Shown here in pieces: positions 1 to 12,015 of a stretch of DNA of 64,000 nt. A program made the translations under genes and the position numbers. The stretch is from Verrucomicrobiia bacterium (GTDB taxonomy: Bacteria > Verrucomicrobiota > Verrucomicrobiia > Limisphaerales > UBA1319): contig OY760937.1 of the NCBI GenBank assembly GCA_963664225.1, forward strand, positions 5,024,001 to 5,088,000, read 5' to 3'. The notes under the pieces are model-generated. The model worked only from the letters and a program-made list of their open reading frames with translations. It had not been told where the DNA came from and did not search any database. Within the stretch, counting starts at the first letter, position 1; each line of letters begins with the position of its first letter.

Positions 1-426
1 CGGAGGGCCATGGTGGTCAGCGGACAAGCGGGCGAAGGTTTCATGGATGAAATGTCGCCATTTGGGGAAAACACGATGGCGGAGTTTTATCAGGAACGGG
101 GATTCAATGTGACAACCAACCGTTTTGACCATTTATGCAGCCAGCCCATCTCCATTAGCGATTTGGCGGGTGGCAATCGCGAGACGAATGCCGAAATTGT
201 CCGGCGGGTGTTGGGGGGGCAGGATCGTGGGCCGAAACGCGAGGCCGTGCTGCTGAATGCCGGCGCCGCATTGTTTGTGGCGGGGAAAGCGCGTTCGATC
301 TCGGAAGGTTGGACGCTTGCCGCAGAGTTGATCGATACCGGTCGGGCGGTGGCCAAATTGAACGAATTGATTGCGGCTTCAGCGGCTTTTGTTGCGGCCC
401 AATCGACGACGGATTCGACGCGGTAA
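1..426 (+). CDS. trpD: Anthranilate phosphoribosyltransferase, C-terminal part (truncated by window edge)
   Basis: Motifs MVVSG..DEMSP, DLAGG..ETNA, AVLLNAGAALFVAG, EGWTLAAELIDTGRA match the TrpD C-terminal domain. Confidence 0.9.
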   Translation, partial: RRAMVVSGQAGEGFMDEMSPFGENTMAEFYQERGFNVTTNRFDHLCSQPISISDLAGGNRETNAEIVRRVLGGQDRGPKREAVLLNAGAALFVAGKARSISEGWTLAAELIDTGRAVAKLNELIAASAAFVAAQSTTDSTR

Positions 427-440
427 GGAGTGCAGGCCCG

Positions 441-980
441 TTATTTGTCGATTGCCACGAATTCGCGTTCCTCATCGCGGACCACCAGGACTGGACATGA
501 TGCATGGCGGACGACACGTTCGACCGTGCTGCCCAGAATGACATGCGCGAGGCTCGAGTGGCCATGAGTGGCGATGACGATGAGATCGGTTGCTTCTTCC
601 TTTGCCGTTTCGATGATTTCAATACTGGGATGACCAGAGGCAATGATCATTTTGGTTTCCAAGCGCGAATCCACCAGTTTTTCTGAAAGCGACTCGAGTT
701 GTTTGCGCCCGTTCTCCCGCATGTCGGATTCGATTTGAGAGAGTTCCACGGCGCCAAATTCTGAGCCGACAAACGAAAACTCGACAACGTGAACCAGAAT
801 CAGCGTGGCTTGAAACTGAACGGCCAGGGCGGATGCATACTGTAATGCTTTAACGGATGATTTGGAGAAATCGATCGGCGAGAGGATCTTCTTCATGCAA
901 ACCGTCTGGCGGCTTTCCGGTGGCCGCAGCCCGCCTGAGCTGTCCTGAGCCGGGTTAGGATTGTGAGAGTCCGGGTTCAT
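441..980 (-). CDS. Universal stress protein (UspA family); alternative start at 896 (MKKIL)
   Basis: KKILSPIDFS, ILVHVV, DLIVIATHG..ILGSTVERVVRHASCPVLVVR are USP signature motifs. Confidence 0.92.
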   Translation of the reverse strand: MNPDSHNPNPAQDSSGGLRPPESRQTVCMKKILSPIDFSKSSVKALQYASALAVQFQATLILVHVVEFSFVGSEFGAVELSQIESDMRENGRKQLESLSEKLVDSRLETKMIIASGHPSIEIIETAKEEATDLIVIATHGHSSLAHVILGSTVERVVRHASCPVLVVRDEEREFVAIDK

Positions 981-1177
981 AAGCGATTCCCTTCCGCAAA
1001 CCCACTGTGGGGTTTGCATTGATCTTAATTATATTTTAGACCGGATTTCCATGAATTCCAGTAAATGTTGCCCAATTTTGAGAATGCAAATAATGGTTGG
1101 CGGATGCCGAAGGGGAGTTTGACATTTGATAAAACTCACCGAGGGAAAGGGTGAATTCAAAACTTCGATGGACTTAA

Positions 1178-1223
1178 GACAAAATTCTTCGGCAGGAAAG
1201 CAAGGACTATAAAAGGATCCCCT
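1178..1223 (+). repeat. ~46-bp dispersed motif, L-class copy 1
   Basis: GACAAAATTCTTCGG..CAAGGACTATAAAAGGATCCCCT; 32/46 identical to 2999-3044; 27/40 identical to the reverse complement of 1373-1412. Confidence 0.75.
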
Positions 1224-1315
1224 AATACGGCTCCCCACACGTGCCAATTCACGTTTGGGGCGAGGAGGTGGAACGCGCGTTCGGACAATTCGGCTGAGTG
1301 TGGCCGTTCTCCGGA

Positions 1316-1343
1316 CGCCGGGTGGGGGGGGCACCCGGCCTGC
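1316..1343 (-). repeat. REP-like palindrome
   Basis: GCCGGGTG (1317-1324) / CACCCGGC (1332-1339) stem, preceded on the minus strand by GCAG, a variant of the GTAG REP tetranucleotide. Confidence 0.5.
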
Positions 1344-1365
1344 AAGGACAAAGCCCCGGACGCAC

Positions 1366-1412
1366 TTCCATGTCGTTTTAAAGGCTTTTTCCATATCCTG
1401 AAGAATTTTGTC
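1366..1412 (+). repeat. 47-bp dispersed motif, R-class copy 1
   Basis: TTCCATGTCGTTTTAAAG.CTTTTTC......CTGAAGAATTTTGTC; 40/47 identical to 7707-7753. Confidence 0.85.
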
Positions 1413-1464
1413 CTGCACCCAAGCACGCGGGGATCGCAATGGGGAAAAAAGTTCGAGATAATTT

Positions 1465-1506
1465 TTGACGCGGTCTGAAGATTGCGCTAGTGTATTAGTA
1501 CATTAG
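1465..1506 (+). promoter_or_regulatory. Sigma70-type promoter overlapped by a candidate GntR operator
   Basis: TTGACG (1465-1470)-N17-TAGTGT (1488-1493); imperfect palindrome CTAGTGTATTAGTACATTAG (1487-1506, 16/20 symmetric, TGTA-N4-TACA core). Confidence 0.65.
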
Positions 1507-1521
1507 TTTAATAGGTCAATC

Positions 1522-1935
1522 ATGACGATAACCGGCAACAGGTTGGAACAATGGCAGGTCGAGTATCACTCGGGCATCCCGGTTTACAGGCAGATCATCA
1601 ATCATGTCCGCGCGGCGGTGGCGGAGGGGTCGTTCAAGCCGGGAGATCAACTGCCCACCATCCGCGCGCTGAGCGAGCGCCTGAATGTGAATCCGAATAC
1701 GGTGGCGAAGGCTTACCGGGAGCTGGAATTGAAGGGGACGATCGTCAGCGAACGCGGCAGCGGGTCCTTCATCCAGGCCCAGCCGGCCGCGCCCGCGTCC
1801 GCGCCTGCCGCCAATGAAAAGAAGGCCAGGCTCAATAATCTTTACCACCGACTGCTGACAGAAGCGGCGGGCAGCGGTGTGACGGAAAGCGAACTCCTTA
1901 GTTTTATCAAAAAAAGAAATGTCTCAACCCTATGA
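1522..1935 (+). CDS. GntR family transcriptional regulator, YtrA-like subfamily
   Basis: PVYRQI..GDQLPTIRALSERLNVNPNTVAKAYRELELKG..RGSGSFI winged HTH followed by a short helical C-terminus. Confidence 0.93.
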   Translation: MTITGNRLEQWQVEYHSGIPVYRQIINHVRAAVAEGSFKPGDQLPTIRALSERLNVNPNTVAKAYRELELKGTIVSERGSGSFIQAQPAAPASAPAANEKKARLNNLYHRLLTEAAGSGVTESELLSFIKKRNVSTL

Positions 1936-2954
1936 CGACGAAATTCAAGCAGAGCTGGGAGCTGTTCAAGGCCTCCATTAACGTCACCCTTCGGTATCGC
2001 AAACTGCTTTGGTTTCCAGTCCTGACCACGTTTCTGACGGTGTGCATCGGGCTTTTCTTTTTGTCGGCGATGGCGCTCCCAGTGGTGTTGCATGACACCG
2101 GCTACCACCTCAGCCAAAAGCAGCATTGGGTGGCCCTGAAGGATTATTACCTCCCTGCGCCCGCCAATGCGCCCAAACCCCGCGACTCCGCCGTGGTTGC
2201 CTCTCAATCGCTGGGTGTTCTGCTCACCGGGCAACCCGCCGCGGTGGACAATTCTGGAAATCCCGGCGCCGCGCATGGCTTCCCCTGGGGGTCGGTTTGC
2301 ATGCTTGCGATTTATTTTGTGTCGATGTTTCTGGCCACGTTTTTCAATGTCGCTTTTTACAGCGAAATCATCGCAGCGCTCGATGGCCGGGGAGTTTCCT
2401 TCCGGCGCGGTCTCTCAGCGGCATGGAATCGATTGCCCTCCATTCTCACCTGGTCGCTTTTGGCGGGCGTTGTCGGTTGGATCATTCGTTCCATTGAGGA
2501 ACGGCTGCCGCTGGTTGGACGGGTTATAACCGGTTTCATTGGCATAGCCTGGAGCGTTGCAGCGGTGTTTGCGATTCCGGTGATCATCCAGGAGCAATCC
2601 ATGCGCAATCCGATAAAAGTGCTCCAGCAATCCGCAATGACGTTGAAGCGAACGTGGGGTGAGGGATTGATCGGCTACCTCGGATTTTCCGCGGGGAGCC
2701 TGGTGATCTTTGTGGGTTCATTGCTGCCGCTGCTGCTGGCGGGGGTGGCTGCCTACCTTTTAAAGAGTGGATGGCTGATCCTCATCGCCGGAGTGTTGTG
2801 GGTGCTGGGCCTGCTTTTGATGGCATATGTTTCCAGTGTTGCGGGGCACGTTTATCGTTGCGCGCTTTATAAGTATGCCACGGAAGGGGTGGTGCCTGAG
2901 CCCTATAACCGTGATTTGCTGGACATGGCCTGGAAGGTCAAAAAGAGTTCGTAA
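1932..2954 (+). CDS. Multi-pass membrane protein (DUF6159-like), translationally coupled to the GntR gene
   Basis: About 6 hydrophobic segments; motifs KLLWFP, TFFNVA, LKRTWGE, YRCALYKYATEG; ATGA overlap with the GntR stop. Confidence 0.7.
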   Translation: MTTKFKQSWELFKASINVTLRYRKLLWFPVLTTFLTVCIGLFFLSAMALPVVLHDTGYHLSQKQHWVALKDYYLPAPANAPKPRDSAVVASQSLGVLLTGQPAAVDNSGNPGAAHGFPWGSVCMLAIYFVSMFLATFFNVAFYSEIIAALDGRGVSFRRGLSAAWNRLPSILTWSLLAGVVGWIIRSIEERLPLVGRVITGFIGIAWSVAAVFAIPVIIQEQSMRNPIKVLQQSAMTLKRTWGEGLIGYLGFSAGSLVIFVGSLLPLLLAGVAAYLLKSGWLILIAGVLWVLGLLLMAYVSSVAGHVYRCALYKYATEGVVPEPYNRDLLDMAWKVKKSS

Positions 2955-2998
2955 GCAAAGTAAAACCGTTGGAGGGACATGTGCATACACCGGGAGCA

Positions 2999-3044
2999 GG
3001 CAAAAATCTTCGGTCAAAAGCCAACGTCTCTTAATGGAACCCCT
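2999..3044 (+). repeat. ~46-bp dispersed motif, L-class copy 2
   Basis: GGCAAAAATCTTCGG..CAACGTCTCTTAATGGAACCCCT; ungapped 32/46 identity to 1178-1223. Confidence 0.7.
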
Positions 3045-3080
3045 CGCTCTGCGCGCCTCAGCCTCAGGCGAGGTCGCTCC

Positions 3081-3108
3081 TTGCTTTCCAGCGGAGGGCA
3101 CTTATATT
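3081..3108 (+). promoter_or_regulatory. Candidate tmRNA promoter
   Basis: TTGCTT-N16-TATATT ending 15 nt before the mature tmRNA 5' end. Confidence 0.5.
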
Positions 3109-3123
3109 TGGGACGCCGATAGT

Positions 3124-3478
3124 GGGGGCGTACTGGTTTCGACCATGTGAATGCGCCAGAGGCGGCATGCCGAGGACGGTTCGTTGGCCTCGTTAAAAAT
3201 CGAACCAAAAAACAAATGCTAACGAAGAATTAGCTCTCGCGGCTTAAGTGCCGTGGCGTTCATCAGCGGACACCTGCTAAGGTGGTGAGCGAAAACAGCA
3301 GGCGTAGGCGACAAACGGAGTGGGCGCGAATGAAGCCGAAGATTATTACATGCCGACTAGGCGACTGGATTCGAGTCAGAACGTTATCCAGTAACCGAAA
3401 ACTCTCTTCTGACTAAGCATGTAGTCGCGGCTGGTAAATTGACCTGGCACGCGGGTTCAACTCCCGCCGCCTCCACCA
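3124..3478 (+). ncRNA. ssrA: tmRNA (one-piece, 355 nt), tag peptide (A)ANEELALAA
   Basis: 5' GGGGGCG pairs with 3' CGCCTCC-A-CCA including the G3:U wobble; GGTTTCGAC 5' motif; T-arm GCGGGTTCAACTCCCGC; tag reading frame 3218-3247 ends LALAA-stop. Confidence 0.97.
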
Positions 3479-3490
3479 CTTCAACCTATT

Positions 3491-3524
3491 TGTTTGCAAC
3501 CACTTACACGGTTGCAAACATTTT
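3491..3524 (+). terminator. Probable tmRNA terminator
   Basis: Perfect 11-bp stem TGTTTGCAACC / GGTTGCAAACA followed by TTTT. Confidence 0.55.
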
Positions 3525-3794
3525 CAACCTGGGTTTTCAGACAATTTTCAGACAAATCCGACGCAACAGGGCCAGAGAAGGCCGTCCGGAGTTTTAAAAA
3601 CAGGCTCTAAAGCAATTCCCGGCTCCAAAACAGACTCGCGATTCTGTGGATATTCAGATGCCTTCATTCTCGACAAGTCCGCCTAAACGTTTCAATGTCC
3701 AGCTATGAACACGAATCAATACAAGGGCAACCCCTCCGCGTAGGGCGGCGCGTGACCATCATCAACAAAATAACAAACCAATAAACACACAAAT

Positions 3795-5108
3795 ATGAAT
3801 AAGCAGGAACGGGTGTCTGGCGTGGGCAAAGGCGATAAAGCCAATGGCCTGAATCGGCGTCATTTCTTAAAAACCGCCATGCAGGCAAGCGCCCTTTTAA
3901 TGGCGCCTCAAATCGTGCGTGGCGCGGTGTTGGGCCGCGATGGCGGCGTGGCCCCCAGCGAACGGATCGTCCTGGGCGCCATTGGAATCGGCAACCGGGG
4001 CTCCTACGTGTTGGGCTGCTTTTTGCATGAACCAGATGTCCAATTCGTGGCCATTTGCGATGTCAAAGAGGCCCGTCGGCAGGCCGTGAAGAAAATGGCG
4101 GACAACAAATATGGCAATGAGAATTGCGCCATGTATCGCGACTTGCGCGAGGTGCTGGCCCGGCCGGACATTGACGCGTTCCTGATCGCCACCGGACCCA
4201 ATTGGCATGCCACCGCATCGATTCAGGCGGCCAAGGCGGGCAAGGATGTTTACTGCGAAAAACCGTCCACGAAGAACATCGTGCAAAGCCTGGAATTGGC
4301 CGAGGCTTTCCGGCGTTCCGGGGGCGTCTTTCAAGCCGGCACGCAACGGCGCAGCCTGCCCAATTTCATGTTCGCGGTGGATCTGGCCCGCACCGGACGT
4401 TTGGGCAAGCTCAAGACCGTGCATGCCCAAGCCGCCGGCCTGGCGACGCATACCAGCGGTTGGGAACCGGCCGAACCCGAGCCTGACAAAGAGCAGGTTG
4501 ACTGGGATTTGTATCTGGGGCCCGCTGCCTGGCGGCCCTTCAACAAGAAGTTGCTGGATGGGTTTAATTTCGAGAAAGGGGGCGGCATGGTGGGCGGCGG
4601 TTGCCTCGAGTGGGGGTCGCATTGTGTGGATCTCTGCCAATGGGCCGCGGATGCGGATAAAACCGCGCCGGTGGAGTATGAGCCGCGCGATGGGCGCATC
4701 TACGCCCGCTACGCCAGCGGCGTGGAGTTGGTGATTCGCGATGACGGCTGGCTCCCGCTGGGCTCCTGCCCGGTGCGGTTCGAAGGCGAAACGGGCTGGG
4801 TCGAGACGGGGGATAACGCCGAGATTGCCTCGAGTTCACCCGCCTTGTTAGTCGGCAAGGGCGCCAAGATTGGTGGTTATCCGGCGGACTTCCACGTCCG
4901 GGATTTCCTGGATTGCGTGAAGAGCCGGAATGAACCGCGCGCCAGCGCGGCGATCGCCTGCCAGGCCCACATCGCCTGTCATGCGGCGAACATCGCCTTG
5001 TTCCTAGGGCGAAAAGTTCAATACGATCCGGTCAAGAATGTGTTTATCAACGACGACCAGGCCAACCGCCTGCGTTCCGAGGCGCTGCGGGAACCGTGGC
5101 GGATGTAA
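3795..5108 (+). CDS. Tat-exported Gfo/Idh/MocA family oxidoreductase
   Basis: NRRHFLK twin-arginine signal; GAIGIGNRG; DVYCEKP; FQAGTQRRS; DWDLYLGPA; WGSHCVD. Confidence 0.92.
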   Translation: MNKQERVSGVGKGDKANGLNRRHFLKTAMQASALLMAPQIVRGAVLGRDGGVAPSERIVLGAIGIGNRGSYVLGCFLHEPDVQFVAICDVKEARRQAVKKMADNKYGNENCAMYRDLREVLARPDIDAFLIATGPNWHATASIQAAKAGKDVYCEKPSTKNIVQSLELAEAFRRSGGVFQAGTQRRSLPNFMFAVDLARTGRLGKLKTVHAQAAGLATHTSGWEPAEPEPDKEQVDWDLYLGPAAWRPFNKKLLDGFNFEKGGGMVGGGCLEWGSHCVDLCQWAADADKTAPVEYEPRDGRIYARYASGVELVIRDDGWLPLGSCPVRFEGETGWVETGDNAEIASSSPALLVGKGAKIGGYPADFHVRDFLDCVKSRNEPRASAAIACQAHIACHAANIALFLGRKVQYDPVKNVFINDDQANRLRSEALREPWRM

Positions 5109-5154
5109 GCCAATGAACCATCCTGGAAAAACCATTGAACAATTATAAAGATTT

Positions 5155-7134
5155 ATGAAATTACAGTTTCGTTCTTTCACCCGCGCCGCCCTGCTGAGCG
5201 CGTTCATCACCGCTGGCGCCATCACCACAGCCATCGCCGCCTCCGACAGCCCCGAAGTGGTCGCCGAAAAGCAGCGCACGCTGCTGGCAGTGCTCAAGTC
5301 CGACGCTCCGCCCGCAGAGAAAGCCATCACCTGCAAACGTCTGGCAATTTATGGTTCCAAGGAAGCCGTGCCGGCTTTGGCGGCTTTACTGCCCGATAAA
5401 GACTTATCCTCATGGGCGCGCATTGCCCTCGAAGCCATTCCCGGACCGGAAGCCGAAGCCGCGTTGCGTGACGCCATGGAAAAGGTAACCGGACGTCAAT
5501 TGGTGGGTGTGATCAACTCCATTGGTTTCCGCCGCGATGCCCAAGCGGTTGGCGGCCTGGTTCAACGATTGGATGTGGCCGATCCCGATGTGGCCGCCGC
5601 CGCCGCCGCCGCCCTGGGGCGGATTGGAGGCGATGTGGCCTCCAAAGCCCTCGAAGTCCACCTGGCCACCGTGCCCGATGCCGTCCGCGTCGAAGTGGCT
5701 GAAGGATGCGTTCGTTGCGCCGAGAAATATCTGGCGGCGGACCAGCACGCCGAAGCGATCCGATTATACGATGCCGTGCGCCAGTCCAAGGCGCCCCTGG
5801 CGAAGCAGCTCGAAGGGGTGCGCGGGGCGATTCTGGCCCGGCAGACCGCGGGGATCAGCCTGTTGATGGAGCAACTGCAATCACCGGAAAAAGCCAGATT
5901 TGGCATCGGTTTGCGCGTGGCGCGGGAATTGCCCGGACAAGCCGTGACGGAGGCGTTGGCGGCGGGAATTGCGAGCGCCAGCCCGGAACGGCAACCCGCG
6001 ATCATTGCCACCCTGGCAGATCGTCAGGATTCAGCCGTGCTCCCGGCGTTGAGCAAGATCCTCAAGAACAACCCGAATTCGCGGGCGCGACTGGCCGCGA
6101 TTGCCGCGTTGGAACGTTTAAATGCCCCCGGCAGCCTGGCGGTGTTGGTGGAGGCAGCAACCTCTGACAGCCCCGAGCTGGTTCGGCCCGCAAAAGTGGC
6201 CCTCACCCGGTTATCCTACCATGGCGTGGACGCGGAAGTGGTGACCAGTCTGGGGAAAGCCCAGGGCAAAGCACTGGCGGTCCTGATTGAACTGGCGGGA
6301 CAACGGCGCATCGACGACGCCTTCCCGGTCATCGCGCGACTCATGGAGAGTCCGGACGCCGGGATTCGCAGCGCAGCTGTAGGCGCGATCGGCATCATGG
6401 GTAAGGCGAAGGAAGCCGGGGATTTGGTCGCATTACTGCAAAAGACCTCCAATCCGAAAGAACGCGAAGGCATCAAGAAAGCGCTCCTGGCGATCGCGGG
6501 CCGGGTGGATGCCTCCGCCGCCACGCCGGTGCTGCCCCTGATGCAAAGCTCAGATAGCGCGCTGCGCATCATCGGTGTTCATGTGCTGGCCGGCGCCGGC
6601 GGCGCCACGGCCCTGGCCGCGGTGACGCAGGCCACCGAAGACAAGGACGAAACCGTGCAGGACGAAGCCGTGCGCGCCCTGTCCAATTGGTCGAATAATT
6701 GGCCCGAGGATGAAGGCGTGGCCGCGCCGTTGCTGGCGCTGGCAAAATCCAACGGGAAGGAATCCCGCCAGGTGCTTGGATTGCGCGGTTATCTCCAATT
6801 CATTCAGGGCGACAAGAAGTTGAAGGCCGACGACAAAATAGCCAGACTCAAGGAAGTCCAGCCGTTGCTCAACCGGCCCGAGGAAAAACACCTGGCCATC
6901 TCCGTGCTCAGCGGGCTCAACACCGGGAGCGCCCTGGAAATGCTGCGCGCCTTTGCGGCCGATGCCGCCGTGGCGGAGGGAGCCTGCCTGTCGCTGGTTG
7001 ACCTGGCAGCGAAGACCGACTTGGAGGATGCCTCCAAAGAGCTGCGCCAGCAATCCCTGCAAACGGTCATCGACAAGTCGAAAGACGCCAAGACCCAGGA
7101 AAAAGCGCAAGCCGCATTGAAGAAGCTCCTGTAA
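5155..7134 (+). CDS. Secreted HEAT-repeat protein
   Basis: Signal peptide; repeated helical units such as AVPALAALL, AAAAALGRIG, RSAAVGAIG, VQDEAVRALSNW. Confidence 0.85.
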   Translation: MKLQFRSFTRAALLSAFITAGAITTAIAASDSPEVVAEKQRTLLAVLKSDAPPAEKAITCKRLAIYGSKEAVPALAALLPDKDLSSWARIALEAIPGPEAEAALRDAMEKVTGRQLVGVINSIGFRRDAQAVGGLVQRLDVADPDVAAAAAAALGRIGGDVASKALEVHLATVPDAVRVEVAEGCVRCAEKYLAADQHAEAIRLYDAVRQSKAPLAKQLEGVRGAILARQTAGISLLMEQLQSPEKARFGIGLRVARELPGQAVTEALAAGIASASPERQPAIIATLADRQDSAVLPALSKILKNNPNSRARLAAIAALERLNAPGSLAVLVEAATSDSPELVRPAKVALTRLSYHGVDAEVVTSLGKAQGKALAVLIELAGQRRIDDAFPVIARLMESPDAGIRSAAVGAIGIMGKAKEAGDLVALLQKTSNPKEREGIKKALLAIAGRVDASAATPVLPLMQSSDSALRIIGVHVLAGAGGATALAAVTQATEDKDETVQDEAVRALSNWSNNWPEDEGVAAPLLALAKSNGKESRQVLGLRGYLQFIQGDKKLKADDKIARLKEVQPLLNRPEEKHLAISVLSGLNTGSALEMLRAFAADAAVAEGACLSLVDLAAKTDLEDASKELRQQSLQTVIDKSKDAKTQEKAQAALKKLL

Positions 7135-7160
7135 GCGCCGAGGTCGTCGGGTTCTTCGTG

Positions 7161-7240
7161 ATCGGATTGGGTGCCGGGGATTTCGCCCCGGCACCCTGCC
7201 ACACCACCGGATGTGCGGTTTTCTCGCATCCGGCGGTTGA
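7161..7240 (-). mobile_element. Group II intron 3' remnant (class IIC-type domains V and VI)
   Basis: Minus strand reads ACCGCCGGATGCGAGAAAACCGCACATCCGGTGGT (DV: CGC triad, AC bulge), then GGGTGCCGGGGCGAAATCCCCGGCACCC-A-ATCCGAT (DVI with terminal AT); no RT ORF nearby. Confidence 0.88.
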
Positions 7241-7261
7241 AACATGCAGTTGTGCAGACGC

Positions 7262-7320
7262 AACCCGGGGTAGCTCGTTCTTCGCAACCCCGCTCTGAAT
7301 GATTTAATCCCTTCGGGATA
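7262..7320 (+). repeat. REP-like double hairpin
   Basis: CGGGGTAGC..GCAACCCCG (7266-7292) plus ATCCC-TTC-GGGAT (7307-7319). Confidence 0.5.
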
Positions 7321-7447
7321 ATGAGGTGGAAATCCGGCGCCGCAGTGGTTGATTAGACATTAAGCCGCCACCACACCGACCAGACCGGAACAGGACGCGC
7401 CACGATTCGGGATGCGTATCATCCCGCTGGGGGCGGAGAGCAAACCT

Positions 7448-7655
7448 GAGGTCAGAGGTCAGCTTCGTCAAAAAAGCGAAGAGCCAAGGGCGGAGGGCAG
7501 AGAAGAAGAATCTACATGGATAATCAAGATGGACAGGATTTTTGACCACGGATATGACGGATGGCACGGCGGGGGGAAAGGAAATGGATAATTGACATTG
7601 GACATTGGAACAGAAAAAACAGAATTTAACCGCATAGAACGGGTAGAGCACAGAG
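7448..7655 (+). repeat. Mosaic of degenerate 7-mer and 9-mer tandem microrepeats
   Basis: GAGGTCA x2; RGCNRAG x4; 9-mer triplets at 7513-7539, 7545-7569, 7629-7655; CATTGGA-like x4 at 7582-7609. Confidence 0.65.
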
Positions 7656-7706
7656 AAGGAGGGGGCGAATAGATTTGGGCCGACTATGTTCAATCGTCCT
7701 AAATAT

Positions 7707-7753
7707 TTCCATGTCGTTTTAAAGCCTTTTTCGCCAGGCTGAAGAATTTTGTC
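7707..7753 (+). repeat. 47-bp dispersed motif, R-class copy 2
   Basis: 40/47 identical to 1366-1412, same orientation. Confidence 0.85.
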
Positions 7754-7955
7754 GCGCGCCCGTCGGCCTGCGGGACTGTCGCTTTCTGTTGACCCGGCAA
7801 GCTTTAACGCTTAATTTCGCATTCTGGCGCGGTGCCCGGAGAATGGCCTGCAAGGTTGTTTTTCCGGGTGTCGATGACGGTGGAATATGGAATCCGCGCG
7901 GTGGATTTTCATGAGTGGATTGAGAAAAACGTCTGCGTGCCGGTAGAGCAAAGAT

Positions 7956-8429
7956 ATGCGACATACAATCTCTGTATTGGTGGAAAATAAATTCGGCGTG
8001 CTGACGCGCGTGGCGGGTTTGTTCAGCGGGCGTGGTTACAATATTGACACCCTCAATGTGGCGCCCACGCAGGATCCGACTGTTTCGCGCATGACGATTG
8101 TCACGCGTGGCGACGACGCCACGCTGGAGCAGATCGTCAAGCAGCTCAATAAACTGGTGGATGTCATCAAGGTGCAGGATTTTGGCTCCGGCGAGTATGT
8201 GGACCGGGAACTGGTGCTGGTGAAGGTTTCGGTGGATTCGCGCACGCGGGCCGAAGTGATGCAGATCACGGACATTTTCCGCGGCAAGATTGTGGATGTG
8301 CAGCCGAAGCATTTGACGATGGAAATCACAGGCAACGAGAGCAAGGTCGAGAAGTTCATCGAGTTGATGAAGAACTTCGGGATACAGGATTTGACCCGGA
8401 CTGGCCAGGTGGCCATGCCCCGGAAGTGA
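7956..8429 (+). CDS. ilvN: Acetolactate synthase small regulatory subunit
   Basis: MRHTISVLVEN.FGVLTRVAGLFSGRGYNIDTL ACT domain; QIVKQLNKLVDVIKV; RELVLVKV. Confidence 0.96.
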   Translation: MRHTISVLVENKFGVLTRVAGLFSGRGYNIDTLNVAPTQDPTVSRMTIVTRGDDATLEQIVKQLNKLVDVIKVQDFGSGEYVDRELVLVKVSVDSRTRAEVMQITDIFRGKIVDVQPKHLTMEITGNESKVEKFIELMKNFGIQDLTRTGQVAMPRK

Positions 8430-8451
8430 TGTCATTGGAACGGATTTGAAT

Positions 8452-8479
8452 TTGACTGGATGCGATCTTTCATTAGAAT
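8452..8479 (+). promoter_or_regulatory. Candidate internal promoter for ilvC
   Basis: TTGACT-N16-TAGAAT in the ilvN-ilvC intergenic region. Confidence 0.5.
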
Positions 8480-8569
8480 GGCGGGTCTGGTTAAGAAGAA
8501 AAACAGAAACTAACAACCAACCGTTGCTCAGGGCGGGCTTAAGGTCGTCCGGCAACTTTACTAAGAAAT

Positions 8570-9670
8570 ATGGCAATTATTGATTTTGGCGGCACAAAAG
8601 AAGAAGTGATCATGCGCCGGGAGTTTCCGATGGCCAAGGCCCTCAAGACTCTTAAGAACGAGACCATCGCCGTCATTGGCTACGGTGTGCAAGGGCCCGC
8701 GCAGTCGTTGAATCTGCGGGACAATGGTTTCAATGTCATCATTGGCCAGGCCAAGGAATTCAAGCGGGATTGGGATCGCGCGAAGAAGGATGGATGGATT
8801 CCTGGAAAGACGCTCTTCCCCATAGAAGAGGCCGTGAAAAAGGCGACGATCATTCAGATGCTGGTTTCGGATGCCGCTCAGCGCACGATCTGGCCCATGA
8901 TCAAGAAATGCCTCAAGCCCGGTGACGCCCTCTATTTCTCACATGGTTTCTCGATTGTTTACAAGGATCAGACCAAGGTGATTCCTCCTGCGGATGTGGA
9001 TGTGATCATGGTGGCCCCGAAGGGTTCGGGCACGTCCGTGCGTCGCAATTTCCTTTCGGGCGCTGGGATCAATTCGAGCTTCGCGGTGTTTCAGGATGCC
9101 ACCGGCCGCGCCCACGAGCGCTGTCTGGCCCTGGGTATTGGCATCGGCTCGGGGTATATGTTCCCGACGACCTTCCAGCAGGAAGTGTTCAGCGACCTGA
9201 CCGGCGAGCGCGGCGTGTTGATGGGGGCGCTGGCGGGCATCATGGAGGCGCAGTATGAAGTGTTGCGCAAGAACGGCCATACGCCCAGCGAGGCGTTCAA
9301 CGAAACCGTTGAAGAGTTGACCCAGAGCTTGATTCGCCTGGTGGACGAGAACGGCATGGACTGGATGTATTCCAATTGCTCGGCGACGGCTCAACGCGGC
9401 GCACTGGACTGGAAGCCCAAGTTCAAGAAGGCGACGCTGCCCGTGTTCAAGGAGCTTTATGAGCGCGTGAAGACCGGCAAGGAAACCGCGCGAGTCCTGA
9501 GCGCCTGCGGCAAGCCCAATTATCAGGTGGAGCTGCAAAAGGAATTGGCCGAGATCGGTAATTCCGAAATGTGGCAGGCTGGCAAAGCGGCCCGCTCCCT
9601 GCGCCCGAAGGAAGTCGCCAAAACGGTGACCAAGGCCACAAAGGGTGTTGGCGGACGCGGCTCGAATTAA
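8570..9670 (+). CDS. ilvC: Ketol-acid reductoisomerase
   Basis: AVIGYGVQG; FSHGF; MVAPKGSG; EVFSDLTGERGVLMG; CSATAQRGA. Confidence 0.96.
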   Translation: MAIIDFGGTKEEVIMRREFPMAKALKTLKNETIAVIGYGVQGPAQSLNLRDNGFNVIIGQAKEFKRDWDRAKKDGWIPGKTLFPIEEAVKKATIIQMLVSDAAQRTIWPMIKKCLKPGDALYFSHGFSIVYKDQTKVIPPADVDVIMVAPKGSGTSVRRNFLSGAGINSSFAVFQDATGRAHERCLALGIGIGSGYMFPTTFQQEVFSDLTGERGVLMGALAGIMEAQYEVLRKNGHTPSEAFNETVEELTQSLIRLVDENGMDWMYSNCSATAQRGALDWKPKFKKATLPVFKELYERVKTGKETARVLSACGKPNYQVELQKELAEIGNSEMWQAGKAARSLRPKEVAKTVTKATKGVGGRGSN

Positions 9671-9690
9671 TAATTAATTCAATTTTATGC

Positions 9691-9723
9691 AAAAAGGGCG
9701 ACCTTCGGGTCGTCCTTTTTTTT
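9691..9723 (+). terminator. Rho-independent terminator
   Basis: GGGCGACC-TTCG-GGTCGTCC stem followed by T8. Confidence 0.9.
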
Positions 9724-9801
9724 GGTCCATGGGGAAGGTGCGCGGGGCGGAAATTGCATTTTGAAGAATTGTGATTTCTGGAGTAACATACCGCAAGTAT
9801 C

Positions 9802-11895
9802 ATGGAACCACAGACAATCCAATCCGGGGCCACCGGTAATCCTGTGGCGGTGAATCGTCTCGCAAAGGAGAAGTCGCCTTATCTTTTGCAACATCAGCAT
9901 AATCCGGTGAATTGGTTTCCTTGGGGCGATGAGGCTTTTGCCGAGGCACGGGCGCTGGACCGGCCCATTTTTCTGAGCATCGGTTACTCGACCTGTCATT
10001 GGTGCCATGTGATGGAGCGCGAGTCGTTCGAGAATGCGCAAGTGGCGGAGTATCTCAACGCCCACTTCATCAGCATCAAAGTCGATCGCGAGGAACGTCC
10101 GGATGTGGACAAGATCTACATGACGGCGGTCCAGGCTTTTTCGGGGCAGGGGGGATGGCCGCTCAACGCTTTTTTAACGCCCGACTTGAAGCCCTTTTAT
10201 TGCGGGACCTATTTCCCGCCGGAAAGCCGGCACGGTTTGCCAGCTTTTTTGTCGTTGTTACGGCAGATTCAACAGGTGTGGACCACGCGCCGGCATGACA
10301 TACTCCATTCCACAGCCGAGCTTCATAAACGGCTGCAACAATCCACGCGGTCGGAATCCTCCCAGGGTATGGTTCTTTCCCCGGCGTTGCTGCATGACGC
10401 GGCAGCTTTGTTCTCGGATCAGTATGACGAGCACAACGGCGGGTTCAGCACCGCGCCGAAATTTCCAAGGCCGTCGTTACCGATGTTTCTGCTGCGCTAT
10501 GGAACCCGCTTTCATGACGAAGATGCGGTGGAGATGGTATTCAACACCTGCGATCACATGGCGGCGGGGGGTATTCACGATCATCTGGGCGGCGGGTTTG
10601 CCCGTTATTCGGTCGATGAAAGCTGGACGGTTCCGCATTTCGAAAAGATGCTTTATGACAACGCCCTGCTGGCGCATTTGTATCTGGACGCGTTCCTGGC
10701 ATCAAACGAGCCGCGATTTGCCGCGACGGCCAACGGGATTTTTCATTACATTCTCAGGGACATGACCCATCCCGAGGGCGGTTTTTATTCCGCCGAGGAT
10801 GCGGACAGCGAAGGCAAGGAAGGCAAATTCTATTGCTGGACGATGGCGGAATTGAGTCCGTTGCTCACGCAGGAGGAGTTGGCCCTGGCAAAGCGGTATT
10901 TCAAGCTCAGCGAGGAGGGGAACTTCATCGATCACAGTGATCCAAAGCCACTGCCCGGCCAAAATGTGTTGTGCATTTCCAATCCGGCAGTTTCGGAAGC
11001 GGAGCATCCCATACTGGAATCCGCGCTGAAGAAAATGTCGGCAGCCCGTGCCCGGCGCGTGCGGCCGCATTTGGACGACAAGGTGCTGACCTCGTGGAAT
11101 GGGCTGATGCTGGGGGCCTTCGCGCGCGCAGGGTTGTCGCTCCGACAGCCCCTGTATTTGAAGGTGGCGGAAAAGAACGCGGCGTTTCTGAAGAGCCATC
11201 TATGGGATGCCGAGGCTGGAGTTCTTTACCACCGGTGGCGGGATGGCCAGCGCGATCAAGTTCAACTGCTGGACGCCTATGCGTTTCTATTGTCGGGTCT
11301 TTTGTGCCTTTATGAGGCCACACTGCAAACCGAGCACCTGCAATTCGCATGTCGTCTTGCGGACAAGATGATCGCGCTTTTTTATGATGCGGAACTCGGT
11401 GGTTTCTGGCAAACGGCGGCTGGGGATCCCCATTTGATTCTGCGTTTTAAGGAGGATTATGACGGCGCCGAACCGTCGGGGAACTCCATTGCCATACTTG
11501 TTTTAATCAAATTGGCCGCCATTACCGGCAATGTCGCCTATAAAAAAGCGGCGGAAAACAGTCTGCGCCTCTTCACTCCCCATCTTTTTAAACTGCCGCA
11601 GGCGGCGCCTCACATGCTCATCGCGATGGATGCCTGGTTCCATGAGCCGACGCGGATTGTGATTGCGGGAGATCCGGGCTCCCTGGAGGCGAAAGCGCTT
11701 CTGCAAGCGGCGCATTCGGTCTATCGGCCCGGCACGGTGATTCTTGGCAACAGCGGACCCGTCGATGGTTTTTCGCAATTATTGAAGCCGCGTCACAAAA
11801 CGGCGGAGGCGTTTCTTTGCACCGCCACGGGTTGCCAGGAGCCGACCGGCGATCCCGACAAGTTGCTGGGTTTGCTCAAAGCGATTCATGCGTGA
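9802..11895 (+). CDS. Thioredoxin-domain / (alpha/alpha)6 barrel protein, YyaL/SPATA20 family
   Basis: [73 protein letters not shown]. Confidence 0.93.
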
Positions 11896-12015
11896 TGGAG
11901 TGGGAAGCCGCAGCCAGAGCGATTTGATGCTGCGGGAATTTCTGGAGCGCGGCAACTCCTGTCGGCCAATGATTTTTAAGTTTTCCAATGGCCGGATTCC
12001 GGTTAATGTTCGGCT

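Follow-up and report, generated by a model that had tools for sequence, protein, structure and literature searches.

Four similar motifs in a 64,000-nucleotide stretch of a Verrucomicrobiia bacterium genome (GenBank assembly GCA_963664225.1, contig OY760937.1, positions 5,024,001 to 5,088,000; hereafter the window) are very likely the ends of miniature inverted-repeat transposable elements (MITEs) from a transposon lineage of the ISKra4 family, which is prokaryotic Mutator-like (p-MULT4). These motifs, L1 (1178-1223), R1 (1366-1412), L2 (2999-3044) and R2 (7707-7753), had been described from the window's letters alone (the sequence-only reading) as cassette ends in a nested L-R-L-R layout, paired R...L around gene cargo and matching no insertion sequence (IS) family that could be named with confidence. 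By scanning the whole 5.78-Mb genome (G000), of which the window is part, we found that units instead run L...R over ~200-330 bp, that L1 and R1 form one element, and that terminus, 9-bp target duplication and promoter-proximal siting all fit the ISKra4 family.

The resemblance among the motifs is confirmed. L1 and L2 are identical at 32 of 46 positions, as had been claimed, R1 and R2 at 41 of 47 without gaps rather than the 40 first counted, and alignments bear out that L and R are inverted relatives. No 46-mer elsewhere in the window, on either strand, reaches 32 matches (next best 28). The 18-mer TTCCATGTCGTTTTAAAG from the R 'tip' occurs twice in the window compared to 0.02 expected, and the 13-mer GAAGAATTTTGTC, allowing two mismatches, seven times compared to 2.2 expected, with three exact occurrences at L1, R1 and R2 and a version carrying two mismatches at L2. 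A profile derived from another 12 L-type ends in this genome matches both L1 (E 3.6e-13) and L2 (E 2.5e-8), indicating that L2, the weakest of the motifs, is a real family member.

What changes is where the elements end. The 13-mer is found 43 times exactly in the genome and 99 times with at most one mismatch, and in copies aligned on it conservation extends inward for at least 45 nt and outward for exactly eight more bases (…GTC CTGCACCC) before reaching background. Across 76 aligned copies the drop comes directly after ...CACCC, and the similarity of copies ends sharply on the outer side, after ...GTCCTGCACCC. This places the outer boundary on the GACAAAATT side and not at the supposed tips; the elements really end on the GACAAAATTC side, and the geometry proposed earlier is inverted. 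Similarity between copies continues inward beyond the 'class-specific tips' (GGAWCCCCT and TTCCATGTCG), which are not element ends. The 5-nt flanks thought to match pairwise (CGCAC/CGCTC and AATAC/AATAT) are internal to the elements and agree at only four of five positions each, and they are neither target duplications nor crossover cores, since the real duplications are 9 bp long and abut the GGGTGCAGG and CCTGCACCC termini. In the extra sequence that the same pairs were said to share, GGGTGCAGG / GGGAGCAGG is the true terminus.

A 21-bp terminal inverted repeat, GGGTGCAGGACAAAATTCTTC … GAAGAATTTTGTCCTGCACCC, marks both limits of each element. From the genome, an 85-nt end profile recovered 113 copies, and a search with the 18-nt terminus (up to three mismatches) recovered 160 ends compared to 3 in a reversed-genome control, so that the earlier observation of no further copies applies to the window alone. 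Ends facing each other within 3 kb make up 39 close (-)(+) pairs. Identical 9-mers abut both termini in 12 of the 39, and the 9-bp flanks match at seven or more positions in 23, compared to 1 of 1482 combinations of left and right flanks taken from different pairs. Terminal inverted repeats together with 9-bp target duplications identify these units as transposable elements.

Pair lengths fall mainly at 198-213 bp (13 pairs) and 318-329 bp (10 pairs), with single pairs at 231, 244 and 504 bp and 13 larger units. None of the 26 repeat-bounded pairs of 198-504 bp has room for a transposase open reading frame (ORF). Near-full copies number 13 for the M320 type and 11 for the M204 type, and the non-coding subfamilies (~204, 244, 250 and 320 bp) have little in common beyond their ends. 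Because they are too short to encode a transposase, we class the small subfamilies as MITEs: they are small, non-coding and multi-copy, share their repeats with a transposase-encoding IS, and are flanked by a 9-bp target duplication. The proposal that left- and right-type ends delimit a non-autonomous mobile element family is thus supported, with mobilisation in trans probable.

In agreement with the earlier observation that the window holds no transposase, nine transposase and cargo protein queries gave no match inside it. A repeat pair enclosing a transposase, the search for which had been suggested, was found ~195 kb downstream of the window start, and no other unit has the repeat immediately beside a transposase gene: a single-copy 1755-bp IS at G000:C1:5219103-5220857 (window-equivalent 195103-196857). 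Among 13 repeat-bounded units of more than 600 bp that we compared, only this one has nothing but its 21-23-bp ends in common with the MITEs, and its repeats match the 21-bp consensus at 20/21 and 21/21 positions. Its ORF (G000 5219521-5220834) stops 23 bp from the right repeat and scores 246.3 bits against NF033572, 'ISKra4 family transposase' (cut-off 205), 27.4 bits against Pfam UPF0236, and just 81 bits against the ISLre2 model NF033529 (cut-off 200). A 112-codon orfA is followed by a run of nine A residues (A9) and then by orfB, the transposase, in the -1 frame. This layout of orfA, A8-9 run and -1 orfB, with both frames open, is common to three genomes from at least two families: G000; G028, from another family of the same order (A9 run; transposase 69% and orfA 58% identical to G000); and G009 (A8 run; transposase 40% identical). 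The 40%-identical homologue in G009 ends ...TTTGTCCTGCACCC. Five contig-end loci in G028 (L006-L010) carry the same end sequence, with transposase C-terminal coding sequence 6 bp from the end (81-83% identical across the 31-38 residues covered), as would be seen if a multi-copy IS had collapsed where contigs end. Adjacency of end and transposase in G028 ties the repeat to an ISKra4-family transposase independently of G000. R-type MITE ends and the left end of the IS also have a 10-nt box, CTATATACTT, in common at the same offset from the terminus, suggesting that R-type ends derive from the IS left end; within the IS itself the box overlaps what reads by eye as a plausible orfA promoter pointing inward (TTGGTT-N17-TATAGT).

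We found a fixed spacing between element ends and promoter-like sequences. Counting outward from the 160 ends, flank positions 28-30 are T, T and G at 81, 72 and 74 ends (~40 expected), with A at position 52 and T at position 56. TTG starts at position 28 in 35 of the 160 flanks compared to a mean of 3.9 per position, and TTGnnn-N16-18-TAnnnT occurs in this register 10 times compared to 0.28 per position, so that 27 nt (the 9-nt duplication plus 18 nt) separate the element end from the TTG of the -35 box. Of the 39 pairs, 17 have the TTG signal on a single side (8 left, 9 right) and none has it on both; the signal stands beside 11 of 43 R-type ends and 24 of 117 other ends, and the 1755-bp IS has TTG at position 28 of its right flank. 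In the window, R2 keeps this canonical register: the -35 box of the promoter that serves the ilvN-ilvC genes (acetolactate synthase small subunit and ketol-acid reductoisomerase) begins exactly 28 nt after the R2 end. The ilvN upstream region of the same-genus genome G001 has a matching TTGACC-N17-TATTTT, and the sequence upstream of that -35 box is unlike an element end. ORFs of at least 100 aa start within 300 nt outward of 31 of 35 promoter-side ends and 94 of 125 others, a comparison whose control was too weak to use.

Matches to the terminus are unevenly spread among the 31 genomes compared, with 79 in G000, 1 in G001, 20 in G007 and 14 in G009; 20 genomes have none, and controls gave 0 everywhere. 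Sequence 31-mers of the 1755-bp IS are shared with metagenome contigs from peat, biofilm, wastewater, landfill and sediment (fraction 0.2-0.47; 20 rows, 13 studies), and to judge from these shared words close relatives of the IS may be widespread.

Pairs of MITEs lie directly end to end at two sites, G000:C1 116820/116830 and 4479648/4479657, where just 8-9 nt separate the termini. At 116830-117149 the 9 nt between the abutting MITEs (tcttcttca) are the target duplication of the second element, indicating that one copy inserted directly beside the end of another. Such end-to-end insertion is not explained by a promoter-register model.

The window itself holds one complete copy and two remnants (Table 1). 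L1 and R1 are the two halves of an old complete copy of 251 bp, which sits between divergent Usp (441-1019, -) and GntR (1522-1935, +) genes and whose subtype has one other full-length copy in the genome, at 82% identity. In its left repeat the outer 8 nt depart from the consensus GGGTGCAG, which is why the search allowing up to three mismatches missed it. L2 and R2 are solo ends, both of them broken. The L2 repeat, GGGAGCAGGCAAAAATCTTC, lies at 2992-3011, and since L2 matches just the first ~61 positions of the L-type profile (match 2993-3051, envelope 2992-3071, model positions 2-61) we interpret it as a truncated left end; no right half was found for it, and the 85-nt end profile at E<=0.01 did not pick it up. 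The R2 repeat, GAAGAATTTTGTCGCGCGCCC, lies at 7741-7761, and inward homology of R2 to other copies extends for at most 85 bp, the remainder of the element being replaced by other repeat families.

Table 1. Positions of the element copies, terminal repeats and associated features. Window positions unless marked G000.
Feature	Position	Strand	Basis
Complete 251-bp MITE (L1+R1)	1170..1420	.	Both halves found by genome-built end profiles
Left terminal inverted repeat, degenerate, GGACTTAAGACAAAATTCTTC	1170..1190	+	Read from sequence (GGACTTAAGAC…)
Right terminal inverted repeat, GAAGAATTTTGTCCTGCACCC	1400..1420 (G000:5025400-5025420)	+	21/21 consensus match, 0 mismatches
L2, truncated L-type left end	2992..3071	+	L-type profile (12 other copies), E 2.5e-8
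tmRNA gene (context, not element)	3124..3478	+	Rfam RF00023, 151.8 bits, E 1.7e-60
R2, truncated R-type right end	7677..7761	+	Profile match 7687-7763, E 2.5e-12
Sigma-70-type promoter TTGACC-N17-TAATTT (ilvN-ilvC)	7789..7817	+	Sequence; match in G001; same register genome-wide
Seven nested-IS units (outside window)	G000:C1 445656-447427, 1248047-1250861, 1738086-1739958, 2347449-2349848, 2379445-2381417, 3179237-3181085, 3658237-3659952		

Transposons of this kind are known, and those described here are ISKra4-type promoter-proximal transposons in MITE form. According to Guerillot et al. 2014 (PMC3942029), p-MULT elements carry 18-39-bp inverted repeats that end in C, produce direct repeats of 8-9 bp, and are thought to move via circles. 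Listed repeats of the ISKra4 group end …GCACCC (GGGTGC… at the start), and the group inserts upstream of sigma-A promoters at 13-17 bp from the -35 box, a distance counted from the repeat end (Table S2 of that paper), with near-identical repeats leading to insertion on either side. The present elements resemble that group, so far as it is documented there, in a transposase matching NF033572, a 21-bp repeat that falls within the published range and ends in C, a GGGTGCA... terminus as in ISAcce1, ISBeg3 and ISGob7 (Table S1), 9-bp direct repeats, and insertion upstream of promoters in both orientations. In contrast to the group, most copies here are non-coding MITEs, the repeat lies 27 nt from the -35 box compared to 13-17 (16 for p-MULT3) in a published analysis that covered 30 bp at most, and the transposase is split by a predicted -1 frameshift, which the same source reports as a conserved feature of the sister ISMich2 group. 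By transposase profile, repeat and duplication, rather than by placement in a tree, membership in the ISKra4 / p-MULT4 family fits. Table S1 of the paper lists p-MULT4 proteins from Verrucomicrobia that lack a defined element; Table S2 has no rows named 'ISKra4' or 'ISCasp2'; and the word 'MITE' is absent from the main text. TnGBS and ISLre2 (p-MULT3) likewise have a DDE Mutator-like transposase and keep a constant spacing ahead of the sigma-A -35 box when they insert, although they do so in one orientation and at 15-17 bp, whereas the present elements take both orientations and lie one helical turn further out.

The units are like other bacterial MITEs in being short, non-coding, multi-copy and intergenic, with IS-type repeats, target duplications and several subfamilies, and unlike them in having an ISKra4 partner family and a promoter-upstream register. 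Well-known bacterial MITEs include the Correia/NEMIS elements of Neisseria and RUP of Streptococcus pneumoniae. Judged by titles and the opening lines of abstracts, no paper on ISKra4-derived or Verrucomicrobia MITEs was found, and on the same basis MITE derivatives of the ISKra4 (Mutator-like) family may not have been described before.

We propose that the single 1755-bp IS supplies the transposase that would move the MITEs in trans, and that this transposase would be made as an orfA-orfB fusion through a -1 shift on the A9 run. This protein would bind the 21-bp ends of IS and MITEs alike, excise them, probably as circles (a circular intermediate being likely by analogy with the family), and integrate them 27 nt upstream of the -35 boxes of sigma-70 promoters, the near identity of the two repeats allowing either orientation.

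Several observations weigh against this account. Sixteen of the 39 pairs have no more than six of nine duplication matches, the exact register is present at just 35 of 160 ends, and many copies are old, with full-length M204-type copies 73-94% and M320-type copies 86-99% identical to their references. The complete window MITE lacks a 9-bp duplication (flanks aacttcgat and aagcacgcg), has a degenerate left repeat, and shows TTG at position 28 of neither flank. The candidate autonomous IS exists as one copy without a 9-bp duplication of its own, its frameshift is predicted only, and its orfA gave no family match against NCBIfam (E<=1). A distance of 27 nt, compared to the published 13-17, means either that targeting differs or that the signal reflects something else, for example survival bias. 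Finally, no transposition, circle junction or empty site was observed. Twenty-three public sequencing runs are listed for the IS, all as contigs and none from RNA; of the four compared with it, two have the whole IS in one contig and may be its source, and two are fragmentary, without joints, from which nothing follows either way. Around four MITEs with perfect duplications, comparison with G001 found flanks that were 67-71% identical, on different contigs or unmatched, and gave no readable empty site because G001 is too diverged and rearranged.

Alternatively, the family could be extinct in G000, with the MITEs as fossils, the 1755-bp IS as a decayed pseudogene, its 'frameshift' as a lesion, and nothing mobilised today. 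We consider this improbable. In its favor, the IS is single-copy without a target duplication, most copies have diverged, all copies in the window are degenerate or truncated, and orfA has no family match. Extinction does not readily account for an orfA / A-run / -1 orfB layout kept, with both frames open, in three genomes, nor for two M320 copies that are 98.75% identical and each flanked by a perfect 9-bp duplication, and programmed -1 frameshifting is reported to be conserved in the sister ISMich2 group (PMC3942029). The -35-like TTG that lies a constant 27 nt away from 35 of 160 ends, together with conservation in G001 of the promoter downstream of R2, could instead suggest immobile regulatory DNA, that is, transcription-factor or UP-element-like sites. 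The sequence-only reading had indeed said that copies at a fixed distance from transcription starts would indicate transcription-factor sites; such a distance is present, yet it does not imply that interpretation and agrees with the target preference already known for these transposases. Direct 9-bp duplications flank the units. A unit has an inverted end at each side and a promoter beside only one of them, in either orientation, and ends of the same kind enclose a transposase gene. G001, with its matching ilvN-region promoter, has nothing like an element end upstream and only 1 copy compared to 79 in G000. Because duplications are present, the signal is one-sided and the distribution is patchy, we attribute the fixed distance to transposon landing or survival, and a regulatory origin is highly unlikely.

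Least probable of all is the original model of R...L cassettes around gene cargo, moved by a tyrosine or serine recombinase with the 5-mers as crossover cores. Two kinds of end, L-type and R-type, do exist, and the window does hold two 5-mer pairs matching at four of five positions. However, similarity runs through the 'tips' and stops on the opposite side, units genome-wide are L...R, 198-329 bp long and non-coding, and the duplications are of 9 bp at the outer termini. The GntR and DUF6159 genes between R1 and L2 lie between elements rather than within one, and their matches in G001 sit near one another on a single contig and strand, with an order that agrees with G000, which suggests that they are ordinary chromosomal genes rather than cargo. 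Integron attC sites and gene cassettes fit poorly with L...R units that have 9-bp duplications and enclose no ORFs (intI was not searched for). It is similarly very hard to credit that IS110-family (DEDD, guide-RNA-directed) recombinases move the elements or have them as their targets. Two IS110 kinds do lie inside repeat-bounded units, and one of them breaks the L-type end at the same point in two MITE copies, but the same IS110 elements (4 and 5 copies) also occur outside MITEs, with just 1-2 of each inside. Their conserved boundaries lie within MITE sequence, and the MITE halves on their two sides align in order with intact MITEs, so that these IS110 copies are nested insertions. The units moreover carry 21-bp repeats and 9-bp duplications, and IS110-family elements are not known to have 9-bp duplications or 21-bp terminal inverted repeats.

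Under the interpretation that we favor, of ISKra4-family MITEs moved in trans, an apparent 'cassette system' resolves into an ordinary, testable mechanism. Promoter-upstream targeting by the ISKra4 family would be extended to a lineage, Verrucomicrobiota, represented by just orphan transposase genes in PMC3942029. The shifted register of 27 nt is to us the most interesting open point, since 27 nt compared to 13-17 has a bearing on promoter recognition by such transposases. Annotation can now label ~160 intergenic repeats of this genome, plus those in several relatives, and the position of a MITE predicts sigma-70 promoters 27 nt away. A more ambitious reading, which we advance only tentatively and rate as doubtful, is that this transposase lineage measures one helical turn beyond the described promoter-targeting Mutator-like elements, and that its MITEs act as a genome-wide promoter rewiring device and a hub for the nesting of mobile DNA. 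At least 35 promoters of one genome would then have been seeded with MITEs in either orientation, each a shared 200-330-bp module that carries a promoter-like TATATAC box and comes to lie immediately upstream of the A/T-rich stretch next to the -35 box, and the MITEs would be preferred landing pads for at least seven other IS families.

Nesting is documented in the larger repeat-bounded units, which mostly carry unrelated transposases (IS3, IS66, two IS110 kinds, IS1634, IS701 and IS481) or, in one case, a DUF559 gene. Seven different IS each have one MITE-nested copy (Table 1), amounting to 7 of ~38 copies at >=93% protein identity, and the small repeat-bounded MITE pairs total ~7 kb of the 5.78 Mb. 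Sequences flanking IS481, IS1634 and one IS110 line up in order with both halves of an uninterrupted 320-bp MITE, which identifies the IS inside MITE units as nested insertions, and the nested IS types are also present elsewhere without MITE flanks, except for the single-copy IS481. Three of the seven split the 320-bp MITE in the same central stretch, positions 119-188. By comparison, REP/BIME elements, reported by Tobes and Pareja in 2006 to be IS insertion targets, are alike in being repeats that lie between genes and receive insertions from several IS families unrelated to one another. REPs are ~35-bp palindromes linked to RAYT (Y1) transposases and are not known to make 9-bp duplications, unlike the 200-330-bp elements with terminal inverted repeats described here.

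IS110-family genes lie inside units 1738086-1739958 and 3179237-3181085. One IS110-family element (4 copies) occupies the same point of the L-type end (...ATGGA^ / ...GTTGA^) at G000:C1 3179237-3181085 and 4663500-4665376, in two MITE copies that differ from each other and are diverged. This point coincides with the L 'tip' GGAWCCCCT of the sequence-only reading, and the left terminus of the IS110, CCCCTGATACGG, resembles the MITE sequence there in L1, CCCCTAATACGG; sequence-directed targeting of the MITE by this IS110 would fit these matches. Repeat-bounded units of ~1.0-1.2 kb without an ORF of at least 90 aa, at G000:C1 1989367-1990539 and 3241689-3242691 and in a copy ending at 3271700, are unusually long for non-coding family members.

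In the window, L2 is directly upstream of the tmRNA gene. The DNA upstream of tmRNA is not conserved in G001, G007 or G009, in two of which a tRNA-like sequence precedes it, and the regions around L1/R1, L2 and tmRNA are not syntenic in these three genomes. A possible tmRNA promoter, TTGCTT-N16-TATATT, is seen by eye at 3081-3108, ~15 nt upstream of tmRNA and past L2; a possible L2 right end near 3053-3057, with this promoter ~27 nt beyond, was also noted by eye, and its match is too weak to claim. We rejected a 4.77-kb composite running from L2 to R2 with tmRNA and two genes, as both ends are truncated and the outer 9-mers differ (gcatacacc and gtcggcctg). An Rfam scan of window positions 1-12000 (E<=1) found no RNA family that fits the motifs. 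A CRISPR repeat match (CRISPR-DR32) on R2 reached 25.5 bits compared to a gathering threshold of 48 (E 0.66), and its copies are dispersed, not arrayed. A hairpin or terminator reading of the TTTTAAAGG block was weighed by eye only and not used.

The spacer upstream of ilvN (7135-7765) is made wholly of repeats, of which 7135-7676 is a patchwork of other repeat families. Dispersed families occupy 7259-7427 and 7495-7610, with as many as 37 and 25 genome matches respectively, the first of which forms tandem arrays near G000 1.734-1.736 Mb. At 7159-7249 (-), a 90-nt segment gives a weak match resembling group II intron domain V (RF00029, 31.1 bits compared to a gathering threshold of 40, E 0.0064). 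It has four further genome copies at 92-94% identity and a 59-nt match at 85%, one copy lying ~60 bp inside an R-type MITE end at 3176063-3176152, and 86-88% matches in G007.

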